Source: Candidatus Omnitrophota bacterium (lineage in GTDB: Bacteria; Omnitrophota; Gorgyraeia; Pluralincolimonadales; Pluralincolimonadaceae). From it: DNA of 64,000 nucleotides. The stretch spans positions 14,757 to 78,756 of the forward strand of contig JBAZFB010000004.1 of NCBI GenBank assembly GCA_041653595.1, read 5' to 3'. Positions within the stretch are counted from its first letter, which is position 1. Every line of letters starts with the position of its first letter. The position numbers were made by a program, and so were the translations under genes. Below the pieces are notes generated by a model. It saw only the letters and a list, made by a program, of their open reading frames with translations, had not been told where the DNA came from and made no database searches. Positions 1 through 36,670 of this stretch are shown one piece after another.

Positions 1-1641
1 AACCTCAAGAACGCGAAATTACTGGATGATATCACCGACCTGACGAAGAAATACAACCTGTATTTCCAGCTCGTATTGAACCAGCACGGGCAGCTCAGCA
101 CAAAGGTCGACCCGGAGTGGCTCAATAACCCCTACAACGTGAAGAACGGCGGGCCATGCAAGGAGCCGAAAGATTTCCTTACGAACCCGGAAGCCAGGAA
201 GCTCTATAAGATGCGCGTGCGTTATATCGTGGCGCGCTGGGGATACTCCACGAACATCCTCGCGTGGGAGCCGTGGAACGAGCTTACGCTCATGGACAAT
301 TACGACGCGAAACTCGACATCCCGTGGCAGAGGGAGATGGGCCAGTACATTAATTCGATCGACCCCTACAGGCACATGGTAACCACCAGCTATTTCGGCA
401 ACTTCCCGAAGGAGATCTGGAAGCAGCCCGAGATATCCTACGGCCAGATACATATGTATACGCCGGAGATAGTCACGACCCTCGACGGGCTCTATACGAT
501 AATGAAGGATTATAAGAAGGCGTATTTCGTCGGCGAGTACGGCGGCAGCAATTTAAGCGGCATCGATATACAAGACCCGAATGCCACGGTCCACCACAAC
601 GGCATCTGGGCCGCCTATACCACAGTATCATCCGGCGACGCGATGCCGTGGCAATGGGACGATTATATCGAGCCGAATAACTTTTATTTCCACTGGCTCT
701 CGCTCGCAAAATTCAACGAGGGCGAAGACAGGCGCGGCCAAAGCTACCGGTACAGCCGCGGGACGCTCGAGTTCGATGACGGGACGATACTTAACGCCCA
801 GGGCATAATGAATAACAAGAGGGCGCTTATCTGGGTATATGACCTGCTGAGGACGAAATTCAACCAGGGCGCGTTCAGGCCTCTTGATATCAAAGGCGCC
901 GTATTGACGGTCGCCGGGATGGACAAGGGAGATTATAAAGTCGAGTTCTGGGACACATATAGCGGGAAAGTCACCGGGACGGTCGATGCCGCGTGCAAAG
1001 GCTCGAAGATAGAGATACCCTTGCCCGAGATAACCCGGGATATGGCCCTAAAGGTGATATCCCTGGATGCCAAGGCCCGTCCCAGGCCTGCAAAGGTCTA
1101 CATAGCTTCGAAATTGCTGAAGAAGGATGTGCCGTTGGAGATGCGCGATATCTGGGAAGGTTTTGAGAAACAGGGCGATTGGGTCTGCGCGGACTGGGGC
1201 GATAAAGGGAAGGTTTCGCTCGCCAAAGACAGGCTCACCGAAGGCAAGACTTCGATCAAAGTGGTATTCGACAAGGCGGGCAAGAGGACCGATGGGAAAG
1301 GCCTGTGCCTCCAGAATACCAAGCTTGACCTCGACCTGTCAAAGGCCAAAAAGATGATATTCGATGTTTATCTCGACGCGCCGAACTCCATAGAGGTAGC
1401 GGCCGTCCTTAACAGCAAGGGCTTCTGCGAGAGCGTCAGGAAGCAGCTGGTTCCCGGCTGGAACAGGAACATCACGTTCGATCTTACGGCTAATACTTTC
1501 AAGAAACAATCGACCAAGTGGCAACACAAGGGCGCCATCGACAGGGAAGAGCCGATGAAAGAAATGATGTTCATGTTCTACCCGTGGGACGTGGATTCCG
1601 GCGCTATCTACGTAGACAATGTGGGATTTTTGAACGACTAG
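1..1641 (+). CDS. Putative clan GH-A (GH5-like) glycoside hydrolase, 5'-truncated by the window edge. Paralog of the 9244..11370 gene, with a C-terminal beta-sandwich/CBM-like region.
   Basis: Frame 1 is open from nt 1. The translation (…QHGQLSTK…NPYNVKNGGPCKEPKDFLTNPEARKLYK…RYIVARWGYSTNILAWEPWNEL) aligns residue-for-residue with the 9244 ORF (…IHGQFSTSS…NPYNAKNGGPCKSPPDFFTNEDATKLFK…RYIIARWGYSPAIFSWELWNEI). The W-E-x-W-N-E motif resembles the GH5 acid/base NEP region. The tails also match (GMDKGDYKVEFWDTYSGKV vs GLKDGDYAVEYFDTIAGGV). Exact family (DUF4038/GH140-like or GH5) was not verified. Confidence 0.7.
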   Translation, partial: NLKNAKLLDDITDLTKKYNLYFQLVLNQHGQLSTKVDPEWLNNPYNVKNGGPCKEPKDFLTNPEARKLYKMRVRYIVARWGYSTNILAWEPWNELTLMDNYDAKLDIPWQREMGQYINSIDPYRHMVTTSYFGNFPKEIWKQPEISYGQIHMYTPEIVTTLDGLYTIMKDYKKAYFVGEYGGSNLSGIDIQDPNATVHHNGIWAAYTTVSSGDAMPWQWDDYIEPNNFYFHWLSLAKFNEGEDRRGQSYRYSRGTLEFDDGTILNAQGIMNNKRALIWVYDLLRTKFNQGAFRPLDIKGAVLTVAGMDKGDYKVEFWDTYSGKVTGTVDAACKGSKIEIPLPEITRDMALKVISLDAKARPRPAKVYIASKLLKKDVPLEMRDIWEGFEKQGDWVCADWGDKGKVSLAKDRLTEGKTSIKVVFDKAGKRTDGKGLCLQNTKLDLDLSKAKKMIFDVYLDAPNSIEVAAVLNSKGFCESVRKQLVPGWNRNITFDLTANTFKKQSTKWQHKGAIDREEPMKEMMFMFYPWDVDSGAIYVDNVGFLND

Positions 1642-1934: not shown

Positions 1935-2603
1935 ATGATGAAGTACATGGTAGTGATTGCAGCGATGTTATTGGTAAGCGGTTCGGCGTTCGGTACAACT
2001 TTGTATGACTTCGAGTCAGGCACGCAGGATTGGTCAGCTCAGACTTATGTAGACAGCCAGGCTATATCCGCCGTTGCGCAATCCAGCGCCCAGGCAAAAT
2101 CCGGTTCATCTTCATTGATGGGAACGACTCACTTGGTTGCGACGAACCCGGCCGATGCTAATTACAGCAAGGGTGAGGTCAAGATCGAAAGAGGCGCATC
2201 TAACGCGCTTAATCTGCAAGGAGTACTGGCTTCTGTGTCGGTCTTCGGACCTACCGGCGCGAAGGGAGGGAATCCTTCGTCCCCCAACGGATGGCAGATG
2301 TTCTTTAAAGACACTTCCTGGAAGTCGTGGTACGGTCCGTGGAGTGATTTGACGGAGAATACCTGGCAGACGTTATCGGTAACGCCAGGTTCTACGGTCC
2401 CGGCTTTTGTCGATTCGGGTTTTGACCCCACGCAGATCATGGTCATGGGCGTCAAGATCGGTACCGGTGGTTCGGCCACAGGGACCTATGACGGTCCCGT
2501 CTATGTCGACGACTACACCGTGGTCCCTGAACCGGCGAGCATGCTTCTTCTCGGCAGCGGTCTGATTGGCATCTTTGGTTTCGCGAGAAAGAAGAAAGCG
2601 TAG
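1935..2603 (+). CDS. PEP-CTERM sorting-domain protein with an N-terminal signal peptide and a CBM-like beta-sandwich domain.
   Basis: A strong SD (aagaaggaggtgaaacaataATGATG) precedes the start. The signal peptide reads MMKYMVVIAAMLLVSGSAFG. The C-terminus VPEPASMLLLGSGLIGIFGFARKKKA is a canonical PEP-CTERM (VPEP, TM helix, basic tail). 'YDFESGTQDW' is a CBM_4_9-like start. The ORF track begins at 1854, but that in-frame extension would precede the signal peptide. Confidence 0.8.
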   Translation: MMKYMVVIAAMLLVSGSAFGTTLYDFESGTQDWSAQTYVDSQAISAVAQSSAQAKSGSSSLMGTTHLVATNPADANYSKGEVKIERGASNALNLQGVLASVSVFGPTGAKGGNPSSPNGWQMFFKDTSWKSWYGPWSDLTENTWQTLSVTPGSTVPAFVDSGFDPTQIMVMGVKIGTGGSATGTYDGPVYVDDYTVVPEPASMLLLGSGLIGIFGFARKKKA

Positions 2604-2659
2604 TAAAAATTCGACAGTAGAGGTACAATAAGAAAAATAATAAAGGGGGTATTAAAGCT

Positions 2660-5089
2660 ATGAGGAAAGTTCAAAAGGACTTGCTCCCTCACCCGAAAAT
2701 AGCTTTAAGCACCCCCTTTTTTATCTCCGGGAGGAACAATAGGGGCGTCGCCCTTATCCTCACGGTAGGGGTGTTGGCCCTTATCCTGCTCGTCGGCACT
2801 TCCTTTGCCATCAACATGATAGCGGACCTCAAGTCGGCGAAAAACTTCAGGAATGCCGCGGAAGCGAAATATCTCGCCGAGGCCGGGATAAACAGGGCGA
2901 TCTCCGAACTCCTCTACGGCACCGAAGGATTTGTAAGCGACGCGGTCGACTCGTCGGATGAGCTTTGGGCGCAGAGCCCAGCTTATAATACGCCGGTAGG
3001 TAACGGCGGTTATAGGGTAGATAAAATATATGATTGCGCGGGCCAGATATGCATAAACGACGCAAATCCTAACCTAAGCGTTATACTGGAGAACCTGGTC
3101 GCTTCCCTTGGCGCGCCCCTGTCCGCCGGCGATGGCGCGGCGATAGTCACTAATCGTCCCGCTGCCGGTTATACCACAAAGGAAACAATAATAGAAGCCC
3201 TTCCCGGAGCGGCGCTTGCCGACAAAAAGGCAAAATACAATAAGATAAAGGACCATATAACCTTACAGGCATTTATAGATTACGATGTAATAAGCCCCGC
3301 GTCGCCTTATCCCGCGGCGCCCAGGGCGCCGGTAAACGTGAATACCGCATCAAGGGAGGTATTGATCGCGGTCCTGACGGGGATAAGCGACGGCACGAAT
3401 ACTATGACTTCCGCGAAGGCCGCTGCCCTCACCGACCATCTTATAAATAACCGCCCTTACGGGACCTACGACCAGTTGTGGGGCATGCTCTTGTCCGCAG
3501 AGACGCTCGGTTATATCGCCGCCGGCGACGCTGCTGCCGTCATGGCGAACGCCAACCCGAACACGGACCTGATGCGCGCGAACCCCAATTATTCATGGCG
3601 GTATAAGCATGTATCGAGGTATGATCCCGCCAATCCCGACATCCAGGCCTATTACGACGCGAATGGCGTCCCCCTCACGGTAGATAAGACCGCGCTCTCG
3701 GTTTATACGACGGAATTCTGCTTCAACTCCGGCGGATATTATGAGATCAACGCGACCGGGTTCATAAATGACGCGTCAGGGAACCAGGTGGCATCTAAAA
3801 GCCTGCAGGCGGTCGTAAAACTTTTCGATATCTGGAAACAGACTACCCAGGCCCAGTTCGCGCAGGGCACGATAAGTAATACCGAGCTCTATCCGGAGTA
3901 CGACCAGGCCTCTTCCGGCGTATCTCCCGCCGCCTATGACGGGCAGGTAATGCTCACGACAAGGAAAGAAGCAGCCCCTTCCGGAACACCGCATTTCAAG
4001 ATCGATTACGCAGATAAGGCCAATCATCTGAACGCCGACAGCGCGGGGGGAAACGCTGCCAGGCAGACGAGCGGCGTCACAGGCCCTATCCCGAGGGAGG
4101 CCGGCATACTTGCTAATCCTGCGGGCAATCTTATGCCTGACGGGGTATTTTATCCCCGCGATGGACAGACTATAGATTGGTTTTATCCAGAAAACAATAT
4201 AGAGGCGAGCAGGGGCTCTATAGAGATATGGTTTAAGCCGAATTTCTATGAAAGATGGGTGACGTTTCCTACCTATGATTCGGGTAAGATATTTGAAACG
4301 CAGACCAGATCTTTTTGGGATGCCGACGGCAATGAATGGAAATGGTCCAATTCTTCCATTGATATGTATATGGCCAGGGGTTCCGGCGAGACCTCGTGTA
4401 AAGTCGTCGTCAGGGTCCACGGGAAAGACGGCCTGGAGCATAATTTTTCTTATTGGCTTTGGGGCGTCAGCAGTTCCTGGGGGGCGGGGACGTGGCACCA
4501 CCTGGCTTTTGTGTGGGACTTTAATACCGCGGAACAGCATATGTATATAGACGGGATCAGCCAATATGATAATTCGCTGGCCATCCAGCCATACGGGTTT
4601 ACCGGATTTCAGGGCCTGCAGTTCGGCTGCGATACGAACGCGAACGAGCCTCCGAACGGCACTATGGATGAGATACGCGTATTCCCGACGATGTTAAATG
4701 CATCCGACATCGGCAACGATTGCGCTGCCGGAAGATACTACGATGTGGGGGACGCCTCTTTTACGTCTTCTTCGCATGCGGCGGGCGCGGTAAGACTTGG
4801 GACTATATCATGGACCGAACACGTCTCGGACATGAACGGCAACCCTATTATCCCGGGTGCGGACATAACTTTTGACGTTTTTGACGGCGCGAATTGGCTA
4901 GGCAACAGCTCATCCAGGTCTAACCCGGCGGGCAATCCGCTCAATGTCGTTACCGGCGGCACGGGTGATATCAGGTATAACGCCTATTTCCTGGAATCCG
5001 GGGACGGCCTCCTTGATTCGCCGGTCCTGGACGATGTGACGATAACTTATCAAAAACGCGCGAAGATATTATACTGGAGAAATATATAA
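2660..5089 (+). CDS. GspK-like minor pseudopilin (T2SS protein K / PilX-N family) with a large C-terminal extension containing a LamG / concanavalin A-like lectin domain.
   Basis: The N-terminus RGVALILTVGVLALILLVGTSFA, followed by a helix, resembles E. coli GspK 'RGMALVVVLVLLAVMMLVTITLS'. 'VNVNTASREVLIAVLTGI' matches the GspK 'ININTLDVTQSVILEAL' helix-hairpin-helix motif. The C-terminal region has LamG_3-like signatures (SIEIWFKPNFYERW…WHHLAFVWDFNTAEQHMYIDGIS…GLQFGCDT…MDEIRVF). An RBS (aaagggggtattaaagctATG) precedes the start. Confidence 0.75.
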   Translation: MRKVQKDLLPHPKIALSTPFFISGRNNRGVALILTVGVLALILLVGTSFAINMIADLKSAKNFRNAAEAKYLAEAGINRAISELLYGTEGFVSDAVDSSDELWAQSPAYNTPVGNGGYRVDKIYDCAGQICINDANPNLSVILENLVASLGAPLSAGDGAAIVTNRPAAGYTTKETIIEALPGAALADKKAKYNKIKDHITLQAFIDYDVISPASPYPAAPRAPVNVNTASREVLIAVLTGISDGTNTMTSAKAAALTDHLINNRPYGTYDQLWGMLLSAETLGYIAAGDAAAVMANANPNTDLMRANPNYSWRYKHVSRYDPANPDIQAYYDANGVPLTVDKTALSVYTTEFCFNSGGYYEINATGFINDASGNQVASKSLQAVVKLFDIWKQTTQAQFAQGTISNTELYPEYDQASSGVSPAAYDGQVMLTTRKEAAPSGTPHFKIDYADKANHLNADSAGGNAARQTSGVTGPIPREAGILANPAGNLMPDGVFYPRDGQTIDWFYPENNIEASRGSIEIWFKPNFYERWVTFPTYDSGKIFETQTRSFWDADGNEWKWSNSSIDMYMARGSGETSCKVVVRVHGKDGLEHNFSYWLWGVSSSWGAGTWHHLAFVWDFNTAEQHMYIDGISQYDNSLAIQPYGFTGFQGLQFGCDTNANEPPNGTMDEIRVFPTMLNASDIGNDCAAGRYYDVGDASFTSSSHAAGAVRLGTISWTEHVSDMNGNPIIPGADITFDVFDGANWLGNSSSRSNPAGNPLNVVTGGTGDIRYNAYFLESGDGLLDSPVLDDVTITYQKRAKILYWRNI

Positions 5090-6169
5090 ATGAAAAAGGG
5101 AATATGTTTCATCTCTCTTATATTTGCTCTGTCATTGGCGTGCCGGGCCTCATTCGCGGACACGGTGACGCTCAATAACGGCCGCTCGCTCGAAGGAGAG
5201 ATACTCGAAGAGAACGGCGCGACCATGACTTTAAGGACGAAAATAGGAAAGGTAATTTTCAAACGCGCCGATGTCGCCTCGGAGAAACGCACGGAGCTGC
5301 CCGAGGGATTCTTCGGCGCGAGGGCGGAGGAGAAGCCCCGGGTCACGGTAAATCCGGTGCCGCTCAAGGCCGAGGGTTACGGCGAGGCGAATTCCGGGAA
5401 ATTTAATTTGAACGTTTCGGCCGAGATGAAAAGTTCTTACAACGGCGACGCTATTCTCGTTAAGTATAAGACAAACCTTCCGCAGAAGACCGTCCTCTTC
5501 CTGCAGGTCAGGGCGCTCAACCAGGTTATCGTCACGCGCAAGCATGCGGTGGAAGGGCAGTCATTTGCGATAAGGTTCGGCCCGTTCAAGGAGAAGAGAT
5601 TCTCGCCGGGCATCTATGTAGTCGAGGTCTCCTGCATAGCCTCAAGGCAGGAGAGCGAAGAGATAAAGAAGAAACTCGAAGGCGTTGGCGATATCGTCGC
5701 GACCGCGGAGATCCGCGTAGGGTCTCCGGACGAGGCAGAGGGGGCTACCGGCAAGCGCAGGAAGGAGTTGGCGGCCGAACTTAAGGAACTGGACAGCCTT
5801 TACAATAAGCTGAGCCTGGAATACGAATCCCAAAAGAAGAAATTCAACAAAGAGAGATGGGAATCGTTTACGAACGACTTTGAGGGCACGATAGAGAAGA
5901 TAAAGGATGCGGACCTGGCGTACCGGAAGGTCGCGATAGTCATGGACTACCCGGCGCAGGAGAACGCCAAGATATCTATCGCGGATATTTTAAGGAAGCT
6001 CCGGATCCGTTATGCGGAAAGTCTATACAAGGCGAACAACCTCGAGTTCAAGGTCCCTCCGTCGGATGACGGCAGGGGAGCGGAAGCGCTCGACGTCAAC
6101 ACGAAGAGCCTTCTTGCCTCTGCCCGTAGTTTTGTAGAGAAATCGGAAAAAAAGACGGAGCAAAAGTAA
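5090..6169 (+). CDS. Hypothetical secreted protein with a signal peptide and a C-terminal coiled-coil-rich region, translationally coupled to the GspK-like gene.
   Basis: ATG is 1 nt after the upstream stop (tataaATGaaaaag). The signal peptide is MKKGICFISLIFALSLACRASFA. The C-terminal half is K/E-rich and low-complexity helical. No recognisable catalytic motif. Confidence 0.7.
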   Translation: MKKGICFISLIFALSLACRASFADTVTLNNGRSLEGEILEENGATMTLRTKIGKVIFKRADVASEKRTELPEGFFGARAEEKPRVTVNPVPLKAEGYGEANSGKFNLNVSAEMKSSYNGDAILVKYKTNLPQKTVLFLQVRALNQVIVTRKHAVEGQSFAIRFGPFKEKRFSPGIYVVEVSCIASRQESEEIKKKLEGVGDIVATAEIRVGSPDEAEGATGKRRKELAAELKELDSLYNKLSLEYESQKKKFNKERWESFTNDFEGTIEKIKDADLAYRKVAIVMDYPAQENAKISIADILRKLRIRYAESLYKANNLEFKVPPSDDGRGAEALDVNTKSLLASARSFVEKSEKKTEQK

Positions 6170-6210
6170 CTATTTCTTGACTTTTTATCACAATAGAGAA
6201 TAATAAGGCT

Positions 6211-7455
6211 ATGCGCGGAATAGAACGCGGAAGTGCTATATGGTGTCTTTTTTTATTTTTTGCGGCCCTCATTTTATCCTGCCTTTCCGGCTGCGCGAAG
6301 AAATCTTCCGAGAAAGAGATACTCATGTGGCTCGTCGGTTCCGAGAAGCAGGCCCAGAAGATAACCGAGCTCGGGCGGGATTTTTATAAAGAGACCGGAG
6401 TCAAAGTGAGATGCGAGGCGCTCTCGTGGGGAGAGGCCCATTCGAAATACCTGACCTCGGTCGTAGGGGAAGTCACCCCCGACATCGGGACGATGGGGCT
6501 TACCTGGGGGACCGAATTCGGCAACCTGGGCGCGATGGTCGACCTCCAGAAGGCTTTTCCTGCGGACCTCAAGGATATAGAGGACAACATCTTTCCCGGC
6601 CTCGCGGAATCCATAAGATATAAAAACAGCGTCTATGCCGTCCCGTTCGATATAAGCGAATATGTAATGTATTACAGGATCGACATAGTCGGAAGGCCGC
6701 CGCGGGACTGGAAAGAACTGGCTTCCCTTCTGGCCGATCTCAACCGCGACGGCAAGTCGATGATAATCGACTGGGGCGGCCTCGGATGGATAGGATACAG
6801 CCCGTTCCTGTGGCAGGCGGGCGGGGATTTTTATAATAAGGAGAAGACGGCCGCCACGCTCGATACCGCGGCCGCGGAAACCGGGATGGAATTCTTTACC
6901 GGCCTATATAAGAGATACGGCGTGCCGAAAGAGGAGAAACCCGTAGAGCAAGGATTTAAGATGGGCGACTACCCGATATTCATCTCCGGGAACTGGAAGA
7001 TGAAGAGCCTTGCGGACGTTGCCCCGGAGATAAACGGTAAATGGGGCATATCGCCGCTCCCGGCCGGGCCCACAGGAAAGAGGACCGGGTTCATCGGCGG
7101 CAGGGTTATGGGAGTCTTCTCCCAGTCCAAATTAAAGGATGAGTCGTGGGAGTTCATCAAGTATCTCTCCCGCCCGGCGGTCCAGCTGAAATTATACGAG
7201 GCGACCCTCGAGTCGCACGATACCTATCTTCCCCCGAACATAAAGACGTGGGATATCCTCCCGATGGATGCGGCGTTCAAGGAACCGCTTAAGGCGCAGG
7301 CGATGGACTCGAAAGGGCCGCCGTCATTATTGGGCTGGGATGACAGCACGAGGTTCATAGATACGGCCATACAACTTATCGTCCTGAAGGGCAAGGACGT
7401 GAAGGCCGCTTTAGCCGGCGCGAACGACGAGTTGAACAGGAGGCTCAGGAAGTGA
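6211..7455 (+). CDS. ABC transporter extracellular solute-binding lipoprotein (family 1, CUT1 sugar type).
   Basis: The LSGC lipobox follows the signal peptide. The length and composition are typical of sugar SBPs. The gene is followed by two MalF/MalG-type permeases. Confidence 0.8.
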   Translation: MRGIERGSAIWCLFLFFAALILSCLSGCAKKSSEKEILMWLVGSEKQAQKITELGRDFYKETGVKVRCEALSWGEAHSKYLTSVVGEVTPDIGTMGLTWGTEFGNLGAMVDLQKAFPADLKDIEDNIFPGLAESIRYKNSVYAVPFDISEYVMYYRIDIVGRPPRDWKELASLLADLNRDGKSMIIDWGGLGWIGYSPFLWQAGGDFYNKEKTAATLDTAAAETGMEFFTGLYKRYGVPKEEKPVEQGFKMGDYPIFISGNWKMKSLADVAPEINGKWGISPLPAGPTGKRTGFIGGRVMGVFSQSKLKDESWEFIKYLSRPAVQLKLYEATLESHDTYLPPNIKTWDILPMDAAFKEPLKAQAMDSKGPPSLLGWDDSTRFIDTAIQLIVLKGKDVKAALAGANDELNRRLRK

Positions 7456-8354
7456 AGTCGGTAGCCAAGGAATTGAACAAGCAGAAATGGGCGTATATCT
7501 TCATCGGGCCGTCCTTTATCATCTTCGCCGTATTTCTCATAATACCGGTCTTCGCGTCGCTTTACTGGAGCCTGACCGAATACAATATCCTCCAGCCGCC
7601 CAAATTTGTCGGCCTGCAGAATTATATAAATATAATATTCCACGACCCGCGTTTCTGGAAGGCGATGGTAAACACCGCGATCTATGTGGCCGGCACGGTC
7701 CCGACGAGCATAGCTATCTCGCTGCTTCTCGCCGTGGCCATCGACCAGAACATCCGTTTCAAGAACTGGTTCAAGACCTTCTTCTTCATCCCGAGTATCA
7801 CTTCGATTATAGCGATCTCGGTCATCTGGAAGTGGCTTTACGCGAGCGGGAAATACGGCCTCTTTAACCACGCCCTTTCGTCGATCGGGATAGCGCCGGT
7901 AAACTGGCTCGGAGTGGATTGGACGCTTCCCTCGATAATAATCATGAGCGTCTGGGGCGGTCTCGGGTATAACATGATACTCTTCATCGCCGGGCTGCAA
8001 GGCATCCCCCAGGTCTTCTATGAGGCGGCCGAGGTCGACGGGGCGAGCGAATGGGACAAGTTCCGCAACATCACGCTTCCGCTCCTGGCGCCGACGATGG
8101 TCTTTGTCACCATAATGTCGATCATAAGCGCGTTCCAGGTCTTCGACGCGGTATATATCATGACCTACAGTTCGGAGGGGGCGGTGGGCGGGGCGCTCGA
8201 CTGCGCGCTGACGATAGTCGCGTATCTCTACGATACCGGCTTCCAGAGGTTCGCGATGGGCTACGCCTCGGCGCTGGCGTACCTGATATTCTTCGTCCTC
8301 TTCATCGTAACGGTGATAAACATGAGACTGGTCGAGAAAAAGATAGAGTATTGA
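7452..8354 (+). CDS. Carbohydrate ABC transporter permease (MalF/UgpA-like).
   Basis: Multi-TM protein with an EAA loop 'EAAEVDGASEWDKFRNITLPLLAPT'. GTG start overlaps the SBP stop (GTGA). Confidence 0.85.
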   Translation: MKSVAKELNKQKWAYIFIGPSFIIFAVFLIIPVFASLYWSLTEYNILQPPKFVGLQNYINIIFHDPRFWKAMVNTAIYVAGTVPTSIAISLLLAVAIDQNIRFKNWFKTFFFIPSITSIIAISVIWKWLYASGKYGLFNHALSSIGIAPVNWLGVDWTLPSIIIMSVWGGLGYNMILFIAGLQGIPQVFYEAAEVDGASEWDKFRNITLPLLAPTMVFVTIMSIISAFQVFDAVYIMTYSSEGAVGGALDCALTIVAYLYDTGFQRFAMGYASALAYLIFFVLFIVTVINMRLVEKKIEY

Positions 8355-8355
8355 T

Positions 8356-9240
8356 ATGGACATAAACGGGATAAAAGAGCTGGAGAGAAGAGGCACCGTC
8401 AGGGTCGCGAGCAAGAAGAAGCAGCAGCGGACCGCCAACCTCCTCATTTATACTTTCCTGATAGCCGGCTCATTCATAATGATCGTGCCGTTCGTGTGGA
8501 TGATAGTCACGTCATTCAAACCGCTCGACGAGATAAATACCTATCCGCCGAGCTTCTTTATCCGCAAGCCGACGATCGCGGCATACCTTGAACTCTTCAG
8601 GATAATACCGATGGGCAGGTATTTCCTCAACAGCCTTTTTGCCACGACGGCGATCACGCTGGCCAACATATTCTTCTGTTCCCTGGCCGGCTACGCCTTC
8701 GCCAAGCACAGGTTCTTCGGCAGGGACAAGCTCTTCCTCCTGCTTGTGGGTTCGATGATGATACCCTGGCAGGTGAACCTGATACCGAGTTTCGTCATAG
8801 TGAAGAAGTTCGGGTGGCTTAACTCGTTTTACGGGTTGATAATCCCGGCGATGTCCGGCGCGTTCGGGATATTCCTGATGAGGCAGTTCATAATGAACAT
8901 CCCGGATGACCTGATAGACGCGGCTAAGATAGACGGCTGTTCCGAGTTCACTATATACCGCAGGGTGATCTTGCCGCTCATACAGCCGGCGCTCGCCTCG
9001 CTGGCGATATTTACCTTTATGGCCCAATGGAACAATTTCGTCTGGCCGCTCGTGATAATATATTCCTCGAAGATGAGGACGATACCGCTCGCGCTCTCTG
9101 TCCTGAACGGGCAGTTCGGGACGAATTTCGCGATGGTCATGGCCGGCGCCGTGGTCGCCACGGCCCCCGTATTGATAGTATTTATAGCCTTCCAGAAATA
9201 TTTCGTAAAGGGTATAGCGCTTACCGGCCTGAAGGCGTGA
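8356..9240 (+). CDS. Carbohydrate ABC transporter permease (MalG/UgpE-like).
   Basis: EAA loop 'AAKIDGCSEFTIYRRVILPLIQPAL'. Six TM segments. No ATPase gene in the locus, which is usual for CUT1 systems sharing an MsmK-like ATPase. Confidence 0.85.
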   Translation: MDINGIKELERRGTVRVASKKKQQRTANLLIYTFLIAGSFIMIVPFVWMIVTSFKPLDEINTYPPSFFIRKPTIAAYLELFRIIPMGRYFLNSLFATTAITLANIFFCSLAGYAFAKHRFFGRDKLFLLLVGSMMIPWQVNLIPSFVIVKKFGWLNSFYGLIIPAMSGAFGIFLMRQFIMNIPDDLIDAAKIDGCSEFTIYRRVILPLIQPALASLAIFTFMAQWNNFVWPLVIIYSSKMRTIPLALSVLNGQFGTNFAMVMAGAVVATAPVLIVFIAFQKYFVKGIALTGLKA

Positions 9241-9243
9241 CGC

Positions 9244-11370
9244 ATGAAAAATCCCCTCCCCGTCGTCCTGGCGTGCGTTTTTGTATTGGCCGCGGCCGAA
9301 GCCCACGCCTATAAGCCGGCCGCGATAAATTCGGCCATCGCTTCTTCCGAAAAAGTGGGCATGTACGGCCTGTTCGAACTTACGGTTGACCTGAGCGCCG
9401 AATACGAAAACCCGTTTGATCCCTCCCAGGTCGACCTCTCCTGCATCTTCAAATCACCGTCCGCCAAGGAAATAAAAATCCCGGGATTCCTTTACTCATC
9501 GTCAGGGAAGAGGCCGGTCTGGAAGATACGTTTCTCCCCGAATGAAGAGGGAGAGTGGGCCTATTGCGCGGCAGTCGCAGACAGGCGGTCTTCTGCCAGG
9601 TCGCCGGCCGGAAGGTTCATGTGCGTCCCGTCCGGCGCGAGCGGACCGGTGAGGGTAAGCAAGATCGATCCCTGTTATTTTGAGACCTCCGACGGAAAAT
9701 TCTTCTTCCCTGTCGGCATGAACGTCGCGTGGCTCGGTGGGGATACGCTGTATAATTACGACGGCTATTATAAGAAGATAAGCGGCAACGGCGGGAACTG
9801 GTCGCGGCTGTGGCTGTGTTCCTGGGGCCTCGGGCTTGAATGGAAGAAGGACAAGTCGTACGGCGGCCTCGGGAAATACAATCTCAGGAACGCGGACAGG
9901 ATAGATAAGATACTGGGGATGGCCGAAAAATACGGCATGCGCGTCCAGCTTACGATAAATATCCACGGCCAGTTTAGCACTTCATCAAATTCTGAGTGGG
10001 GCGTAAACCCATATAACGCCAAGAACGGCGGGCCATGCAAGTCCCCGCCGGATTTTTTTACGAACGAGGACGCAACAAAGCTCTTCAAGAACCAGCTCCG
10101 TTATATAATCGCCAGGTGGGGATACAGCCCGGCGATATTCTCGTGGGAGCTTTGGAACGAGATTGACCTGACCGACGGTTTCGACGAGGCCCGCGCCGGC
10201 GAATGGCACAAGGAGATGGCGGATTATATAAAGGGCGCGGACCCGCTCGGCCATATGATAACCACGAGTTTCTCAAAGCCGCTGGATTACTCGCTCTGGC
10301 GCGCGCCATACATCAGCTATACGCAGATCCACCAGTACAGCGACGTTATGATAGACGAGATAGTCTTCCGCGCGAAGGAGTTCCGGGAGAGGTACGGAAA
10401 GCCGGTCCTTATCGCTGAAGTAGCCAGCACCGCGAAGGAAGGGACAATAGAGCGCAGGCAGGATCCCCAGGGGATAAGGTTACATAACGCGCTCTGGTCT
10501 TCGGCCGCCTCGCCTGCAGCCGGGACCGCGATGTATTGGTGGTGGGACAGCTATATCAAGCCGCGAAACCTTTTCTACGAGCTTAGGGCGGTCTCCGGGT
10601 TTACCGCCGGCGATGACAGGCGCGGTAAAAAGTTCACGGATATCGATTACAGGATAATTTACCCCAAGGATACCTATAATACGCTCACTTTCACGCCTTA
10701 TCTCGACTGGCAGGCCTCGACCGCCTCGGAATTCATCGTGGGGAACGACGGGCGCGTCTCGGATATCGACAAACTTTCGAGGTTTTTCCAGGGCTCGGCG
10801 CACACGGACATGAAGGTCACTCCGGTATTCGCCGTAGATTATCCCGAGGACGGCTCGTTCACCCTTAATATCGACATGGTATCCGAGGGCGGGGCCAAAG
10901 CTGCCATCTGGCTTGACGACCGGATGGTCCTGGAACATATCTATAAGCCGCTCCCGAGTTATAAGCATCTCGATGACAGTTTCGAGGTCGGCGTGAGCAA
11001 GGGGAAGCACCGCATAAAGATAACCAATGACGGGCCCGATTGGTTCAGGGTCAGGAACATCTGCCTGAGCGGCTATTCCAACCCGCTCCAGGTGGTAGGT
11101 ATCCGGTCCGGCGATTCGGCGTATCTTTGGTTCAAAAACAGGGATGACACGGTCGATAACCGCAGGAAAGGCGTCAGGTATACCTGGATAGAGATACCCA
11201 GGGTCGTCATAACCGGTTTGAAGGACGGGGATTACGCAGTCGAATATTTCGATACCATCGCCGGCGGCGTGATCCGGAGCGAGAAAACCGGGTGCCGGAA
11301 CGGCAGCCTCGAGCTGGTCATACCAACCTTTACCACCGATCTGGGCTGCAAGGTCAAACTCTCCAGATAA
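9244..11370 (+). CDS. Secreted clan GH-A (GH5-like) glycoside hydrolase with N-terminal and C-terminal beta-sandwich domains. Paralog of the gene at 1..1641.
   Basis: Signal peptide MKNPLPVVLACVFVLAAAEA. An N-terminal Ig-like region (…KIPGFLYSSSGKRPVWKIRFSPNEEGEWAY) is followed by a TIM-barrel region with WELWNEID and a C-terminal beta-sandwich. The architecture resembles DUF5060+DUF4038-type putative glycosidases (unverified). Confidence 0.7.
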   Translation: MKNPLPVVLACVFVLAAAEAHAYKPAAINSAIASSEKVGMYGLFELTVDLSAEYENPFDPSQVDLSCIFKSPSAKEIKIPGFLYSSSGKRPVWKIRFSPNEEGEWAYCAAVADRRSSARSPAGRFMCVPSGASGPVRVSKIDPCYFETSDGKFFFPVGMNVAWLGGDTLYNYDGYYKKISGNGGNWSRLWLCSWGLGLEWKKDKSYGGLGKYNLRNADRIDKILGMAEKYGMRVQLTINIHGQFSTSSNSEWGVNPYNAKNGGPCKSPPDFFTNEDATKLFKNQLRYIIARWGYSPAIFSWELWNEIDLTDGFDEARAGEWHKEMADYIKGADPLGHMITTSFSKPLDYSLWRAPYISYTQIHQYSDVMIDEIVFRAKEFRERYGKPVLIAEVASTAKEGTIERRQDPQGIRLHNALWSSAASPAAGTAMYWWWDSYIKPRNLFYELRAVSGFTAGDDRRGKKFTDIDYRIIYPKDTYNTLTFTPYLDWQASTASEFIVGNDGRVSDIDKLSRFFQGSAHTDMKVTPVFAVDYPEDGSFTLNIDMVSEGGAKAAIWLDDRMVLEHIYKPLPSYKHLDDSFEVGVSKGKHRIKITNDGPDWFRVRNICLSGYSNPLQVVGIRSGDSAYLWFKNRDDTVDNRRKGVRYTWIEIPRVVITGLKDGDYAVEYFDTIAGGVIRSEKTGCRNGSLELVIPTFTTDLGCKVKLSR

Positions 11371-11438: not shown

Positions 11439-12464
11439 ATGAAACGTTTCGATAAATCCAGTATAACGATAAAAGACGTGGCAAAACGGGCGGGGGTCGC
11501 TCACTCAACCGTCTCTCTTGTTATGAACGACCGTGAACACGTGTCGCCGAAGCTGCGCGAACGTATCCTTAAGATCGCCAAAGAGATGGGCTATATGCCC
11601 AACCTGGTCGCGCGCAGCCTTATCAGCAAGAAATCGTCCACCGTAGGGGTGGTATTCCCCGAGAACCCGCATTTCTTCACCATAACGTACTTCCTTATGA
11701 TAATAGAGGGCATACAGAACGCCTGTAAGAAATACGACAGGGCGCTCATGTTCTTCAGCCTCGACCAGACCAAAGGCGAGTCGTATTACCAGATATCCCG
11801 CAAATGGCTTATCGACCTCATGGTCATCCTGAACGTCGATTACACAAGAGATATCTCCAAAGACATCCGCGACCTAAAAGACAACGGCATAGCCTTCTCT
11901 TTAGTGACAAAATATAACGGCAAAGAAAAGGTCAACTCGGTCTGCGTCGATAATTTCGAGGGCGTGAGATTGGCCCTGGAATATCTGGCCTCGCAAGGCC
12001 ACAAGCGCGTCGGGTTCATAAGCGGCAACCCGAACTCGGCAGACGGCCCCGAAAGGCTGCAGGCGTTCAAGGTCCTATCCAAAAAGATGGGCTTTGACCA
12101 GGACGAGGAGCTTATCGTCTACGGCGATTTCACGTTCGAGAGCGGCGAGAGGGAGGTCCCGAAGCTCCTGGGGCTCAAGAAACGCCCCACCGCGATATTC
12201 GCGGCGAGCGATTATATGGCCATCGGCGCGATGCGCGTCATGAAAGCGCAGGGTATCTCTATACCCAAAGACATGGCGTTGATGGGGTTCGATAATACCC
12301 TCGAGGTCGCTTATGTCGAACCCCCGCTGACGACGATAAGGCAGCCTCTCCAGGAGATGGGAGAGAAGGCGGTCGACCTCGCAGTCCGCTCCATGAACGA
12401 CGAGAATTTTGAACCCCAGATGGCAGTGATAAAACCCGAACTCATCAAGAGGCAATCATGCTGA
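11439..12464 (+). CDS. LacI-family transcriptional regulator.
   Basis: N-terminal HTH 'ITIKDVAKRAGVAHSTVSLVMND…SPKLRERILKIAKEMGYMPNLVARSL' followed by a periplasmic-binding-protein-like sugar-binding domain. Overlaps the start of the GH2 gene by 7 nt. Confidence 0.9.
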   Translation: MKRFDKSSITIKDVAKRAGVAHSTVSLVMNDREHVSPKLRERILKIAKEMGYMPNLVARSLISKKSSTVGVVFPENPHFFTITYFLMIIEGIQNACKKYDRALMFFSLDQTKGESYYQISRKWLIDLMVILNVDYTRDISKDIRDLKDNGIAFSLVTKYNGKEKVNSVCVDNFEGVRLALEYLASQGHKRVGFISGNPNSADGPERLQAFKVLSKKMGFDQDEELIVYGDFTFESGEREVPKLLGLKKRPTAIFAASDYMAIGAMRVMKAQGISIPKDMALMGFDNTLEVAYVEPPLTTIRQPLQEMGEKAVDLAVRSMNDENFEPQMAVIKPELIKRQSC

Positions 12465-17060: not shown

Positions 17061-17966
17061 ATGGGTAAAGTGGCGGTGCTGTTAGCGGTCGGATTGGTCT
17101 TTTCGTCTGTCTGTTTCGCCGAGGATGCGGTCACAGGGCATACTATCGCGGTCGACAAAAATATAAAGGACTGGACCGGCGTTGCTCCGGAGCAGGAGAA
17201 CTCGGCAGCGGTAAGTAACGGCGAGTATATCTGGAAGGATGCCGCCGGCGACGATACGGGAAACGGGAAATACACTTATCCTTTGGATAAAGCGCTCAAG
17301 AAGGGCGCGGACCTGAAGGAGTTCAGGGTCACGTTCGACAAGGAGAACCTTTATATCCTGATCAAGACCGACAGGCCCGGAGACTGGTGGACCGGCTACA
17401 AGGTAATAGGGATACACAAGGAAGGCGTAGAGGGCGGCACGCAGGTCCTGGCCCAGGGCGATCCCGACGAATTAAATTTTGATTCGGGCACTTTCGCCAA
17501 CCTGAAGGCCGCGCCGGCGTTATCCTGCCAGTATGTGGTGGCGGTCTCCTCGACTTACAAAGGCCGTATCTATGACGAGAAAGGCAAGATGATAGCGCGC
17601 AAAGAAGCGCAACCGGATGATACAGCCGGGTTCAAGGTTGACGATTTCAACTGGAACGCGGTAGAGATAGCGATCCCGTTAAGCCTCATCGGCGGAAGCC
17701 CGGCGGGCCAGACATGGAAGTTCATTGTGGCAGTCGGACAGCAGGATAACGATATTGCCCGTAAGGTACTTGTCGAACAGAGCCAGTATAACGGCGGCGG
17801 CGGGGCCGAGAACGGCGAAAATCCGAGCGCATATGACCTCGCAGGCGCCGATAAGGCTACGCAGGAGAAAGATCTCGGAAGTTATGATCCTAACGCGTCA
17901 GAGGGTGACCTGAAAGGGTTAGCGACGATCGAGAAGTCGTTCTTGACCGTTAATTTCGCGAAATAA
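17061..17966 (+). CDS. Secreted CBM9/DOMON-like carbohydrate-binding domain protein (stand-alone paralog 1).
   Basis: RBS aaaaaggagggcggtaaaATG. Signal peptide. Shares GEYIWKDAAGDDTGNGKYTYP, EFRVTFDKENLYILIKTDRPGDWW, NWNAVEIAIPLSLIGGSPAG and QQDN…GGGG motifs with the GH2 C-terminus. The 'WD..NLY' and 'VE.AIP' pattern is reminiscent of CBM9. Confidence 0.8.
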   Translation: MGKVAVLLAVGLVFSSVCFAEDAVTGHTIAVDKNIKDWTGVAPEQENSAAVSNGEYIWKDAAGDDTGNGKYTYPLDKALKKGADLKEFRVTFDKENLYILIKTDRPGDWWTGYKVIGIHKEGVEGGTQVLAQGDPDELNFDSGTFANLKAAPALSCQYVVAVSSTYKGRIYDEKGKMIARKEAQPDDTAGFKVDDFNWNAVEIAIPLSLIGGSPAGQTWKFIVAVGQQDNDIARKVLVEQSQYNGGGGAENGENPSAYDLAGADKATQEKDLGSYDPNASEGDLKGLATIEKSFLTVNFAK

Positions 17967-17999
17967 GCCCGGCTCATCGTAAACAGGAAGGGCAGACAT

Positions 18000-19019
18000 A
18001 TGAAAAGAGTCCCCTACTTTCTTTTTTATATGTTCGTAGCGATGAGCGCCATCTTTTTTATGGATCAACGGATGGCAGGCGCTTTTTCCGGCCATCCGGT
18101 CCTTGTCGGCGGCGCGACCAACGATTGGATCGGGACGGCGCCGTCCGAACCCAACAGCTGGACGATAAGCGGCGGGGAATATATATGGAAGGACGGCGTG
18201 GGCGATGATACCGGTAACGGCAGTTATACCTATCCTCTCCAGAAGGCCCTGAAAGGCGGATGCGACCTAAGGGAGTTCAGGCTTACCTACGACGACAAGA
18301 ACCTCTACTTATTGATAAAATGCGACCGGCCCGGGGATTTCTGGCCCCCTTTAAGGATAATAGGGATACATAAAGAGGGAATGGTGGGCGGAATGACCGT
18401 CCTGGCGCAGGGCGATGCGAATGAACCGAATTTTGATAAAGGAGTTTCCGCCAACCTGAAGGTCGCGCCCGAGTTAGCCTGCCAATACGTGATCGCTATA
18501 TCATCCTCCGCATATAAGGGCCGGATATGGGATGCCGAAGGAAAACTTGTTGCCCGGAAAGAGGGCGAAAAGAACGATACTCCCGGTTTTAAAGTGGAAG
18601 GCGTAAATTGGAATCATGTCGAAGCCGCGATACCGCTGGAGCTGATAGGCGGCAGTCCGGCGGGACAGGTGTGGAAGGTCATTATCGCCATAGGCCAGCA
18701 GGATTTTGATGTCGCGCGCAAGATAGACGTGGACGCGAGCGAATGGAACGGCGGCGGCGGCGCGCCGAACAATTCCAATCCGTATATCTATGACCTGGCC
18801 GGCGCCGATAAAGAGACGCAGGAGAAAGAATTGGGAAGCTATAACCTTAATGCGCCGTTCGGGGATCCCGACGGATTCGCCGTTATAGCGAAATCATTCC
18901 TGAAAATCGATTTCAGCAATGAGGGTCCCGGTAAATTATCAAGGAGGGGTGAAAATGGCACGGAAACCGGTTTTTTATCTGGCGTTGGCGTCTTTTTTCC
19001 TGCTCTGCTCTCACGCTGA
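18000..19019 (+). CDS. Secreted CBM9/DOMON-like carbohydrate-binding domain protein (paralog 2). Its 3' end overlaps the next paralog.
   Basis: Same motif set (GEYIWKDGVGDDTGNGSYTYP, LIKCDRPGDFW, VEAAIPLELIGGSPAG). Other family members stop right after the '…F(S/A)' motif. This ORF reads ~35 codons further (…SNEGPGKLSRRGENGTETGFLSGVGVFFPALLSR) into the next gene in another frame. Confidence 0.7.
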   Translation: MKRVPYFLFYMFVAMSAIFFMDQRMAGAFSGHPVLVGGATNDWIGTAPSEPNSWTISGGEYIWKDGVGDDTGNGSYTYPLQKALKGGCDLREFRLTYDDKNLYLLIKCDRPGDFWPPLRIIGIHKEGMVGGMTVLAQGDANEPNFDKGVSANLKVAPELACQYVIAISSSAYKGRIWDAEGKLVARKEGEKNDTPGFKVEGVNWNHVEAAIPLELIGGSPAGQVWKVIIAIGQQDFDVARKIDVDASEWNGGGGAPNNSNPYIYDLAGADKETQEKELGSYNLNAPFGDPDGFAVIAKSFLKIDFSNEGPGKLSRRGENGTETGFLSGVGVFFPALLSR

Positions 19020-19920
19020 GGCGGCAGACAGGTACGGGCCTTTTTCCGGCCATTCGATAAAAGTGGACGGTTCGCTGGCCGACTGGGTTGGTGTAGCCCC
19101 GTCCAGCCCTAATACCGGCGCGATAAGCGGCGGCGAGTTCATCTGGAAGGACGCTTCAGGCGACGATACCGGAAACGGCAGCTATACCTATCCAAAGAAT
19201 GCCGCCTTCGCAAGAGCCGCCGACCTGGAGGAATTCAGGGTAACGTGGGACAAGAAGAATGTTTATTTCCTGGTCAAGACGGCCATGCCCGGAGAATGGT
19301 GGGCCCCTTACCGCGTCATAGCCATAGATACGGACGGCGCCGGCGGAGGAGGGAAAGGGATGCAGGTCATACAGCAGGGCTATATTAATGCCGAGTCCGC
19401 CGATTCCGGCACGTTCGGAGAGTTGAAGGTCGACGATGCGACCGCGGCGAATTATGTAATAGCCATAGCGGGCACATACAAGGGGCGCATCTGGGACGAG
19501 AAGGGCAACCTTATCGCAAAGGCCGCCGGTGAAAGCACGGATACCCGCGGTTTCAAGATAAAGGATGCCAATGCTTGCGCAATCGAGATCCAGGTGCCGC
19601 AGAAGATAATCGGGGATCCTGCCGGGAAGATATGGAGATTCATCGTGGCCTGCGGCCTCGAAGACAAGGAGCGCGCCAGGGAGGTCTATAAGGTTGCCGA
19701 CGAATGGCATGGCGGCGGAGGGGAATCCACGACAGCCGAAGACGGCGTAGACCCGGATTTTTATGACCTGGCCGGCCTCGAAAAGACCACGCAGGAGACG
19801 GAGCTTTCGAGCTACGGCTCCAACAAGGCGCCGGGAGACCCCTCGGGTTTCGCGGAGATAAAAAGGTCTTATCTGCAGGTAAAGTTCGCGCCGTATCCGA
19901 ACGCGAAGAACCCGAAATAA
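18955..19920 (+). CDS. Secreted CBM9/DOMON-like carbohydrate-binding domain protein (paralog 3).
   Basis: SD aaggaggggtgaaaATG. Signal peptide MARKPVFYLALASFFLLCSHAEA. Motifs GEFIWKDASGDDTGNGSYTYP and EFRVTWDKKNVYFLVKT. The ORF-track start at 18919 would precede the signal peptide. Confidence 0.8.
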   Translation: MARKPVFYLALASFFLLCSHAEAADRYGPFSGHSIKVDGSLADWVGVAPSSPNTGAISGGEFIWKDASGDDTGNGSYTYPKNAAFARAADLEEFRVTWDKKNVYFLVKTAMPGEWWAPYRVIAIDTDGAGGGGKGMQVIQQGYINAESADSGTFGELKVDDATAANYVIAIAGTYKGRIWDEKGNLIAKAAGESTDTRGFKIKDANACAIEIQVPQKIIGDPAGKIWRFIVACGLEDKERAREVYKVADEWHGGGGESTTAEDGVDPDFYDLAGLEKTTQETELSSYGSNKAPGDPSGFAEIKRSYLQVKFAPYPNAKNPK

Positions 19921-19938: not shown

Positions 19939-19982
19939 TTGACGGGGAGAATTTTTTACGGTATTATATGTTATCGGTAACA
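19939..19982 (+). promoter_or_regulatory. Sigma-70-like promoter (TTGACG, 17 nt spacer, TATTAT) immediately followed by a LacI-type palindromic operator TGTTATCGGTAACA (19969-19982). A weak CCCC/GGGG hairpin with flanking T-runs sits just upstream.
   Basis: TTGACG at 19939-19944, TATTAT at 19962-19967. The 14-mer is a 6/7 half-site palindrome with a central CG and is identical at 13/14 positions to the site at 11373-11386. Confidence 0.5.
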
Positions 19983-19986
19983 TAAG

Positions 19987-35168: not shown

Positions 35169-35169
35169 C

Positions 35170-36045
35170 ATGAAAACCGCGCTTATCTTCATCCAGGTCG
35201 CGATGCTCATCGTTTTATCGCCTCTCGTTAGCGGCATAATAAGGAAGATAAAGAATAATATCAGGATGCGCAAAGGCGCCGGCATATTCCAGCCGTATTA
35301 TAACCTTGCTAAGCTTTTCGCGAAGGAAGAGGTCGTATCGGATACTACGTCGTGGATATTCAGGGCCGCGCCGTTTGTCGTCCTTGCCTCATCCGTGTGC
35401 GCGTTGTCGCTCGTGCCTGTATTCTCGCCGGCGCTTTCGTTCTCCAATATGGGCGATTTCCTCTCCTTAATATTTATTTTGGCGCTCGGCAGGTTCTTTA
35501 TCGCCCTCGCCGGACTCGACGCGGGGAGCGCGTTCGGCGGAATGGGCTCATCGCGGGAGATGTTCATATCGACATTCGTGGAGCCCGTGGCCTTGCTGTC
35601 GATCTTCGCGGTCTCGCTCAACGCGGGTTCGACGAACCTGGCGTCGGTCAGCGCGCCTGCCGTTCTGCGGTTGTCATCCATCATCGCGGCGCTCTCGCTT
35701 TTTATAGTGACTATCGCCGAGACCTCGCGCATCCCGGTCGATAACCGGGAGACCCACCTGGAATTGACGATGATACACGAGGCGATGGTCCTGGAATATT
35801 CAGGCAGGCCGCTCGCCCTTATAGAATTGGCCTCGCACATAAAGCAGATATTGTTCTTTTCCCTGATAGCCGCGGTCGTCATCCCGTGGGGCGATTTCGC
35901 CCTCAAGATGGCGGCGATCATCATAGCGGTGAGCCTGATAGAGGTATCGGTGGCTAAGATGAGGCTGTTCAGGGCCGTGGATTTCCTGAGCTTCGCGTTC
36001 GTCCTCTCGATAATGGCGGTCATCGTCTCCGCGGCGGGGTACTGA
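35170..36045 (+). CDS. HyfC/HycD-like membrane subunit (NuoH family).
   Basis: Multi-TM protein. The N-terminus MKTALIFIQVAMLIVLSPLVSGIIRKIKNNIRMRKGAGIFQPYYNLAKLF matches the NuoH/HycD pattern. ATG 1 nt after the upstream stop. Confidence 0.8.
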   Translation: MKTALIFIQVAMLIVLSPLVSGIIRKIKNNIRMRKGAGIFQPYYNLAKLFAKEEVVSDTTSWIFRAAPFVVLASSVCALSLVPVFSPALSFSNMGDFLSLIFILALGRFFIALAGLDAGSAFGGMGSSREMFISTFVEPVALLSIFAVSLNAGSTNLASVSAPAVLRLSSIIAALSLFIVTIAETSRIPVDNRETHLELTMIHEAMVLEYSGRPLALIELASHIKQILFFSLIAAVVIPWGDFALKMAAIIIAVSLIEVSVAKMRLFRAVDFLSFAFVLSIMAVIVSAAGY

Positions 36046-36046
36046 T

Positions 36047-36667: not shown

Positions 36668-36670
36668 CGA

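Follow-up and report, generated by a model that had tools for sequence, protein, structure and literature searches.

The stretch of DNA analyzed here, referred to as the window, comprises 64 kb from a Candidatus Omnitrophota bacterium and carries near its 5' end three consecutive open reading frames (ORFs) on the plus strand: g1 (1935-2603), g2 (2660-5089) and g3 (5090-6169). They encode, respectively, a secreted protein with a carbohydrate-binding module (CBM) and a PEP-CTERM signal, a large pilin-like protein with a lectin-like module, and a protein with a Sec signal. An earlier, sequence-only reading of this DNA had described three consecutive, tightly coupled genes for exported proteins, and both the arrangement and the coupling were confirmed, with the TAA stop codon of g2 (5087-5089) directly followed by the ATG of g3 at 5090. 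Below, the three genes are described and compared with their counterparts in related genomes, and are read as a probable glycan-capture front end of the locus in which they lie.

Domain content of the three proteins

The g1 product is a single-CBM protein in which an N-terminal signal peptide and a mannanase-type galactose-binding-like domain precede a C-terminus composed of VPEPAS, a hydrophobic stretch and RKKK. The exosortase-type sorting signal previously predicted for it scored above the cut-offs of both Pfam (PF07589, 30.1 bits, cut-off 20.7) and TIGRFAM (TIGR02595, 23.3 bits, cut-off 16). The body of the window copy, of about 170 residues, matched Mann_GBD_bact weakly (E 0.014). For the family, the CBM assignment is solid: Mann_GBD_bact was matched by 16 of 30 homologues, and a search with the family profile hit the CBM of 1wky, a Bacillus endo-mannanase (E 2e-7). 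PEP-CTERM and CBM were found together in all 30 non-identical g1-like neighbors of g2 homologues, with CBM matches to Mann_GBD_bact (16), CBM11 (10), CBM30 (5) and the SGBP-B xyloglucan-binding domain (SGBP_B_XBD, 4). A relationship between the g1 family and the C-terminal region of the protein encoded upstream, which resembles glycoside hydrolase family 5 (GH5), was rejected, as profile comparison revealed none.

Two in-frame ATG codons, at 1854 and 1935, are candidate starts of g1, and the better Shine-Dalgarno sequence (AAGGAGGTGA) precedes that at 1935. The codon at 1854, which has a Shine-Dalgarno sequence of its own, aligns with the start of an extra first PEP-CTERM CBM gene in four homologous loci (L010, L013, L016 and L018) and is probably the remnant start of a deleted gene of this kind. 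In the window, as in L017 and L019, that first PEP-CTERM gene seems to have been deleted, leaving a 27-codon in-frame leader ahead of the start at 1935.

The g2 product, of 809 amino acids (aa), is modular. It exceeded the Pfam cut-offs for Laminin_G_3 (46.3 bits, cut-off 27.6; aa 511-684) and T2SSK (30.1 bits, cut-off 24.2), and scored 18.7 bits against PilX_N (cut-off 25.5). The AlphaFold2 model (predicted local distance difference test 83, predicted template-modeling score 0.81) consisted of a 59-residue alpha1 helix (aa 28-86), a pilin sheet into which a helical domain is inserted, a laminin G (LamG) jelly roll and a C-terminal beta-sandwich. Its GspK-like pilin plus alpha-domain extends to about aa 400, and was matched by Foldseek to XcpX (GspK) in the XcpGHIJK model 9a1f_T (E 7e-7, target-normalized template-modeling (TM) score 0.61, 402 columns). 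Matches of the remainder were to lectin-type jelly rolls, namely pentraxins, the NanA CBM40 and carbohydrate-binding domain 4 of AbnA. The LamG or concanavalin-A-like module spans about aa 495-700 (4142-4759) and also matched the profile of Protein Data Bank entry 4c1w (E 4e-4). In the terminal sandwich (about aa 701-809; 4760-5086), W718 and Y773 were invariant and D786, T787, L790, T796 and Y797 near-invariant (alignment A2).

The g2 N-terminus resembles that of GspK. It reads GRNNRG followed by VALILTVGVLALILLVGTSFAINM, an arrangement kept across 34 homologues, in which a basic leader ends in RG directly before VALIL. Position +5 is Leu rather than Glu. GspK-type subunits characteristically lack Glu5; therefore, the substitution points to the K type, not away from pilin identity. 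Judging from sequence and model, g2 would be a GspK/PilX-like (K-type) tip subunit of a type IV filament with a lectin grafted onto it, and we infer its incorporation into a pilus from these features. The label "pseudopilin-lectin" given to it earlier thus stood as to the pilin-like N-terminus and the LamG module, and is refined here as to the type of subunit.

The third protein, g3, carries a signal peptide predicted to be cleavable and, in its AlphaFold model, a small, optional beta-barrel (aa 21-70), an immunoglobulin (Ig)-like beta-sandwich (94-210) and a four-helix bundle (213-357). The sequence-only reading had called it a K/E-rich helical coiled-coil protein. This description fits only the C-terminal helical part, where K and E make up 26% of the residues, and a plain coiled coil was rejected on the basis of the model. 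The family is small, with 187 representatives at E <= 1e-3 among 1.84 billion. When a diverse g3 alignment was used for a second word-indexed search, only four further proteins were gained. The N-terminal barrel (aa 25-70, window 5162-5299; DxVxLxNGRxLEGEI...) is present or absent among close orthologues, heads unrelated secreted proteins as well, and gave weak matches to models of the PTPDL family and of the Leptospira LA_0442 N-terminal domain.

Distribution of the module in related genomes

The contexts of g2 homologues were compared in assemblies and in 76 loci of GTDB species genomes (numbered with the prefix L), using our own ORF calls, hidden Markov models and motif searches. In 26 cases from Omnitrophota, the g2 gene lay in a glycan locus, that is, outside a pilus operon and with no other pilins. 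A PEP-CTERM CBM protein was encoded at most three genes away in 20 of these 26, as compared to 2/23 in the pilus class, so that this gene is almost confined to glycan loci. The g3 homologue was the next gene in 17 of the 26, a LacI-family regulator lay at most seven genes away in 20, and a solute-binding protein was nearby in only nine. Of the 222 ORFs within three genes of a g2 homologue, 33 were PEP-CTERM ORFs, compared with 1/282 farther away in the same loci (Fisher p 9e-12, a value inflated by kinship among the loci). Random distribution of the three genes relative to each other had been named as what would refute the module; their co-occurrence proved non-random, and g3 followed g2 directly in most loci. 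In most loci, moreover, the frames of g2 and g3 abut or overlap, and synteny persisted down to 32-46% protein identity and between different locus types.

In pilus settings, g2-like genes occupied the K position after GspH-like, I-like and T2SSJ-like prepilins (L032, L047, L040 and L058). Two of these loci, L040 and L058, contained full clusters in which two T2SSE ATPases, a PilT-like ATPase, T2SSF, several pilins, PilM and a secretin accompanied the g2-like genes. Furthermore, g2-g3 pairs recurred in metagenome-assembled genomes (MAGs) of Auribacterota and Planctomycetota, where a more diverse g3 profile located the g3 core directly after g2-like genes. Because the pair recurs both in pilus clusters and in other phyla, g2 plus g3 is the most widely conserved unit. 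Individual glycan loci may lack one partner or the other.

A further arrangement was seen in L029-L034 and L047 (e.g., L032:1988-15814), which hold stand-alone minor-pilin clusters with GspH-, I- and GspJ-like genes followed by up to three K-type genes for proteins of about 1000 aa. These K-type genes carry PA14, CBM_4_9 or other modules, with as many as three g3-like genes interspersed among them, and the clusters end beside an EF-G-like gene. A match to the prepilin regular expression in a Glucodextran_C protein of L002 was discarded as a false positive.

The module was present in at least five different types of glycan locus, and the CBM type fitted the locus enzymes in the four that encode PEP-CTERM CBM proteins. 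A Mann_GBD neighbor was found both in the mannan type (GH5/GH113/GH130/GH2) and in the GH94/GH116 type, a CBM30 neighbor in the GH94/GH9 type and a CBM11 neighbor in the GH26 type. The neighbors in the GH94/GH2/GH35 type were small CBM_4_9-like proteins, with faint or weak matches and no PEP-CTERM recorded.

The number of K-type genes distributed among such loci in a single MAG ranged from three to seven, and one H/I/J cluster was present as well. Within one genome, these paralogues were 40-53% identical in the N-module and 28-41% in the C-part, the latter often aligned over a short stretch only, and their effector modules differed (LamG, PA14 or CBM_4_9). Since each K-pilin gene belongs to a different glycan locus and is accompanied there by a regulator and a matching CBM protein, they look like interchangeable, substrate-specific pilus tips.

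Upstream elements and the surrounding glycan locus

Upstream of g1, a promoter-like site on the plus strand (1696-1724; TTGACA-17-TATATT with an extended -10 TG) matched the consensus at 11 of 12 positions. Its -35 block TCTTGACAAA was invariant and the -10 region TG-N-TAT conserved in nine aligned mannan-type loci. Two operator-like blocks follow on the same strand. O1 (ATAGTTATACCAGAGTATACTTGCCTTGTT, 1734-1763) was near-invariant in alignment A7 and includes one copy of the palindrome AGTATACT. O2 (TAGTATACTnGGnTATACTAAT, 1810-1832) is an imperfect 18-bp palindrome of the LacI-operator type with a central CG. Both blocks were invariant or nearly so in the nine orthologous loci, although the proteins encoded there were only 46-81% identical. 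Within the whole window, AGTATACT occurs in two copies, both upstream of g1. Each of the 11 mannan-type loci has exactly two copies, 67-68 bp apart, just 5' of its first PEP-CTERM gene and none in the rest of the locus. The LacI-family regulator encoded at 11439-12464 on the plus strand, assigned by homology to the Pfam-confirmed LacI at 19987-21012, is the candidate binder of O1 and O2.

A generic scan for LacI-type palindromes with a central CG and at most one mismatch returned none upstream of g1, where both operator-like blocks were identified from the AGTATACT repeat and the footprint alignment, and a sole site before the second LacI gene. This sole site, the near-perfect palindrome TATGTTATCGGTAACATA at 19967-19984, lies immediately 5' of that gene (19987-21012) and is probably the autoregulatory operator of a second regulon, which would comprise GH35 and a 1096-aa protein.

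No terminator-like site was detected on the plus strand between g1 and position 8993, which lies inside the second permease gene of the importer described below. A weaker promoter-like site (TTGACT-16-AATAAT, 6177-6204) is located in the 41 nt that separate g3 from the gene for the solute-binding protein; therefore, the importer may be transcribed on its own too. Loci of the GH94/GH9/CBM30 type, which have a GntR-Peripla_BP regulator, showed a conserved promoter directly 5' of the K-pilin gene (L020:9920-10010 and orthologues, alignment A8), followed by three to four GGTATA repeats that are possibly the operator of that locus type. With conserved promoters and operator-like blocks in two locus types, tip-pilin genes appear to be expressed with their own glycan locus and are probably controlled by it.

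The module is preceded by a gene for a GH5-like enzyme (76-1641, plus strand; weak Cellulase/GH5 match) whose 5' end lies beyond the window and whose counterpart in relatives is annotated DUF5060/GH5_mannosidase. Downstream, on the same strand, follow a sugar ATP-binding cassette (ABC) importer composed of a solute-binding protein and two permeases (6211-9240; Pfam scan, phmmer labels and synteny in homologous loci) and a DUF5060/GH5-like paralogue, the last gene of the operon (9244-11370; Pfam scan and homologous locus). Both the flanking GH5-like paralogues and the importer had been recognized before, and Pfam scans and the loci of relatives bore them out. The locus continues with a 1517-aa GH2, three Glucodextran_C paralogues, the second LacI gene and GH35. 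Its counterparts in the closest relatives are preceded by GH113, GH130 and ROK genes and a GH5_mannosidase, which makes beta-mannan or galactomannan the most likely substrate.

A BamA gene at 61529-63970 indicates a diderm envelope and, therefore, an outer membrane to cross. No SusC/SusD family was matched in the window or in the scans of homologous loci, and neither cohesin nor dockerin in any Pfam scan or neighbor annotation, in line with the previous view that this is not a classical SusC/SusD or cellulosome system. As had also been stated, no exosortase family member was found in the window; nor was a prepilin-type N-terminus besides that of g2, in scans that did not cover every small ORF.

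Other parts of the window deserve mention. An ORF of 1096 aa at 21009-24299, between the second LacI gene and the GH35 beta-galactosidase, had no Pfam match at all. The three consecutive paralogues at 17061-19920 (301, 339 and 333 aa) each consist essentially of Glucodextran_C, a binding module resembling S-layer homology domains, which is also found C-terminally in the preceding 1517-aa GH2; they may represent a second kind of cell-surface anchoring or binding set in the locus. Farther downstream (33342-40100), genes for Mrp-antiporter-like subunits and for NiFe-hydrogenase large- and small-subunit-like proteins (homologues of the complex-I 49 kDa, 30 kDa and 20 kDa subunits) make up what looks like a membrane-bound group-4-type hydrogenase.

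A candidate capture front end, its rivals and its relatives

With a probability of roughly 0.55, we read g1-g3 as the glycan-capture front end of a mannan operon, in which a substrate-inducible, lectin-tipped pilus cap acts together with surface CBM proteins. The observations on which this rests are the order and domain content of the genes, their folds and synteny, and the conservation of the promoter and of the operator-like elements; non-random co-occurrence and CBM types matching the locus enzymes support the substrate-capture role proposed in the sequence-only reading. In this model, the region from 1696 to about 11370 would be a repressor-controlled beta-mannan utilization operon of a diderm bacterium, whose first three genes would provide the extracellular capture stage. 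Upon induction, g2 would be processed by a prepilin peptidase and, with GspH/I/J-like minor pilins encoded in another part of the genome, would initiate and cap a type IVa-like filament, giving a pilus tip predicted to bind mannan. The Sec-exported g3 may bind or stabilize the bulky C-terminal part of g2, or ride on it, whereas g1 would be sorted to the cell surface by an exosortase, its CBM keeping the polymer beside the GH5-type enzymes. Released oligosaccharides would then enter via the ABC importer.

Several findings weigh against this interpretation. Neither H/I/J pilins nor a prepilin peptidase, a pilus ATPase or an exosortase turned up in the window. The NCBIfam T2SS_GspK score of g2, 40.3 bits, is far under the equivalog cut-off of 130; the canonical N_methyl motif (PF07963) was not matched in a Pfam scan of g2; and the g2 leader of 29 aa is unusually long, other subfamilies having 3-14 aa. 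LamG domains can bind proteins as well as sugars. Structure searches returned no informative relative of g3, the role of which is a guess. Finally, some glycan loci lack g3 and others the PEP-CTERM gene, and the loci entering the association statistics are mutually related rather than independent, so that the Fisher p overstates significance.

An unlikely alternative, though the one that survives best, is that g2 is the pseudopilus tip of a type II secretion system (T2SS). A locus-specific GspK variant would recognize the glycoside hydrolases of its locus as cargo, perhaps with g3 as an adaptor, for secretion through a secretin. T2SS GspK/XcpX is the closest named family and fold of g2, and the loci encode many large secreted enzymes. 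A secreted partner beside a tip pilin also recalls the pilus-dependent secreted proteins CofJ and TcpF. However, the PilT-like ATPase and the PilM in the full clusters of relatives are characteristic of retractile systems of the type IVa pilus (T4aP) kind and not of T2SS. In addition, the modules that vary (LamG, PA14 and CBM_4_9) are carbohydrate binders of the classic kind, and the co-located PEP-CTERM CBMs match the substrate, a better fit to capture than to cargo selection. We favor the capture pilus over its rivals because of the PilT and PilM in the clusters of relatives and the carbohydrate-binding nature of the variable modules.

Less probable still is that g2 is not polymerized at all, its N-terminal helix serving as an inner-membrane anchor while the lectin region and g3 hold imported oligosaccharides in the periplasm for the solute-binding protein. 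Such a role would agree with a window devoid of pilus genes, with g3 and the ABC importer directly downstream of g2, and with a long, atypical leader that fails to match N_methyl. It accords poorly with g2 homologues holding the K position in real minor-pilin and pilus clusters, with the better conservation of the N-module, and with the importer being missing from many g2 loci (solute-binding protein nearby in 9/26); a multi-domain lectin of 800 residues would also be unusual for a periplasmic hand-off.

We consider it doubtful, slightly more so than a periplasmic binder, that the module serves attachment to a host or prey, with lectin tip and CBM proteins binding envelope glycans of another organism that are then consumed by the locus enzymes. 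Omnitrophota are thought to be largely epibiotic. Their type IVa pili have been interpreted as host-attachment devices (PMC10066038), and lectin-tipped pili of Streptococcus sanguinis mediate host adhesion (PMC9934059). Nevertheless, the enzyme sets (GH5 mannosidase-like, GH113, GH130, GH26, GH94 and GH9) are those typically used to degrade beta-mannan and beta-glucan from plants or algae, LacI/GntR control and sugar importers accompany them, and the CBM types are those associated with mannanases and cellulases. Attachment of this kind would differ from a glycan-capture pilus in target, not in mechanism. A chance adjacency of three functionally unrelated genes was rejected as most improbable, given the clustering of PEP-CTERM genes near g2, the recurrent g2-g3 pairs with abutting or overlapping frames in most loci, the synteny kept to 32-46% identity and across locus types, and the conserved upstream blocks.

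Modular pilins are widespread, and GspK itself has been cited as one of them (PMC8179133); pilins with lectin modules are established, as shown by the structure and glycan binding of S. sanguinis PilC (PMC9934059). T4aP genes are a common feature of Omnitrophota (PMC10066038), a further precedent for the capture reading. PilC and g2 share a pilin with a grafted Ig-like or beta-sandwich region and a concanavalin-A-like lectin domain, a predicted tip location, the need for a partner subunit, and glycan binding as effector function, which for g2 is a prediction (PMC9934059, PMC8179133). Unlike PilC, g2 has as its carrier a K-type (GspK-like) pilin with an inserted alpha-domain, in a diderm host, and its gene resides in a catabolic glycan operon instead of a pilus locus. 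Several g2-type paralogues occur per genome, each tied to a different glycan locus, and the partner g3 is a Sec-exported non-pilin.

With T2SS GspK/XcpX and the GspK-I-J tip complex, g2 shares the missing Glu5, the helical domain inserted in the pilin fold (target-normalized TM 0.61) and, in the clusters of relatives though not in the window, the last position after H-, I- and J-like genes. It differs by about 400 extra C-terminal residues (LamG and beta-sandwich) and a score below the NCBIfam equivalog threshold, and the machinery found with its relatives looks T4aP-like (PilT and PilM). Verru_Chthon cassette protein A (TIGR02600), from a phylum of the Planctomycetota-Verrucomicrobiota-Chlamydiota (PVC) type, is likewise very large with a GspK-like N-terminus and is encoded beside prepilin-type proteins. 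Yet g2 is not a member of that family, scoring 24.4 bits (cut-off 332) over the first ~80 residues only.

Like the polysaccharide utilization loci of Bacteroidota with their SusD and surface glycan-binding proteins, the loci described here are substrate-specific, regulated and equipped with surface glycan binders, glycoside hydrolases and an importer, and some g1 homologues even match the SGBP_B xyloglucan-binding domain. They differ in having no SusC/SusD pair, PEP-CTERM anchoring in place of lipidation, ABC import and a pilin gene. As for exosortase sorting, g1 has the canonical VPEP, hydrophobic stretch and basic tail of a secreted PEP-CTERM protein; in this case, however, the cargo is a single CBM in a catabolic and not an exopolysaccharide biosynthesis locus, with no exosortase seen in the window.

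Filaments that bind polysaccharides are known. Type IV pili of Caldicellulosiruptor bescii mediate attachment to plant polysaccharides and are expressed in response to them, although in that species binding is by the major pilin, without a lectin module (bioRxiv 10.1101/614800). Dextran-binding fibers have been described in planctomycetes without assigned genes (PMC5394234), and Planctomycetota MAGs carry g2-g3-like pairs. Type IV pili that retract and carry exchangeable lectin tips (K-pilin plus g3) induced by the substrate could reel polysaccharide chains to or through the secretin into the periplasm in Omnitrophota and possibly in Planctomycetota and Auribacterota, an extension that we regard as speculative. 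If true, such pili would be a glycan counterpart of DNA-uptake pili, replacing outer-membrane import of the SusC/SusD type, and would give a molecular identity to the polysaccharide-binding fibers of planctomycetes.

Our literature searches returned no paper that connects glycan-utilization loci with PEP-CTERM CBM proteins or GspK-like pilins, and none on exosortases in Omnitrophota. Nor did the literature searched describe lectin modules on a K-type carrier encoded within catabolic glycan operons, several K-type genes per genome as apparent alternative tips, a conserved Sec-exported partner of such a pilin, or co-located PEP-CTERM CBM proteins. Concrete candidates for experiments are the g2 C-terminal region and g1 for binding, the g2-g3 pair for interaction, and O1/O2 for regulator binding.

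It is poorly understood how diderms devoid of SusC/SusD, among them the PVC-related and candidate phyla prevailing in many anoxic sediments and groundwaters, seize and internalize polysaccharides. Our analysis suggests that Omnitrophota put substrate-specific sugar-binding tips on pili to catch polysaccharides. If this is true, equipping the catabolic operon for each substrate with its own pilus-tip gene, a matching CBM protein for the cell surface and a conserved partner would constitute a new organizing principle of glycan capture, and the abundant type IV pili of Omnitrophota would have to be read as devices for nutrient capture as well, and not for host attachment only.

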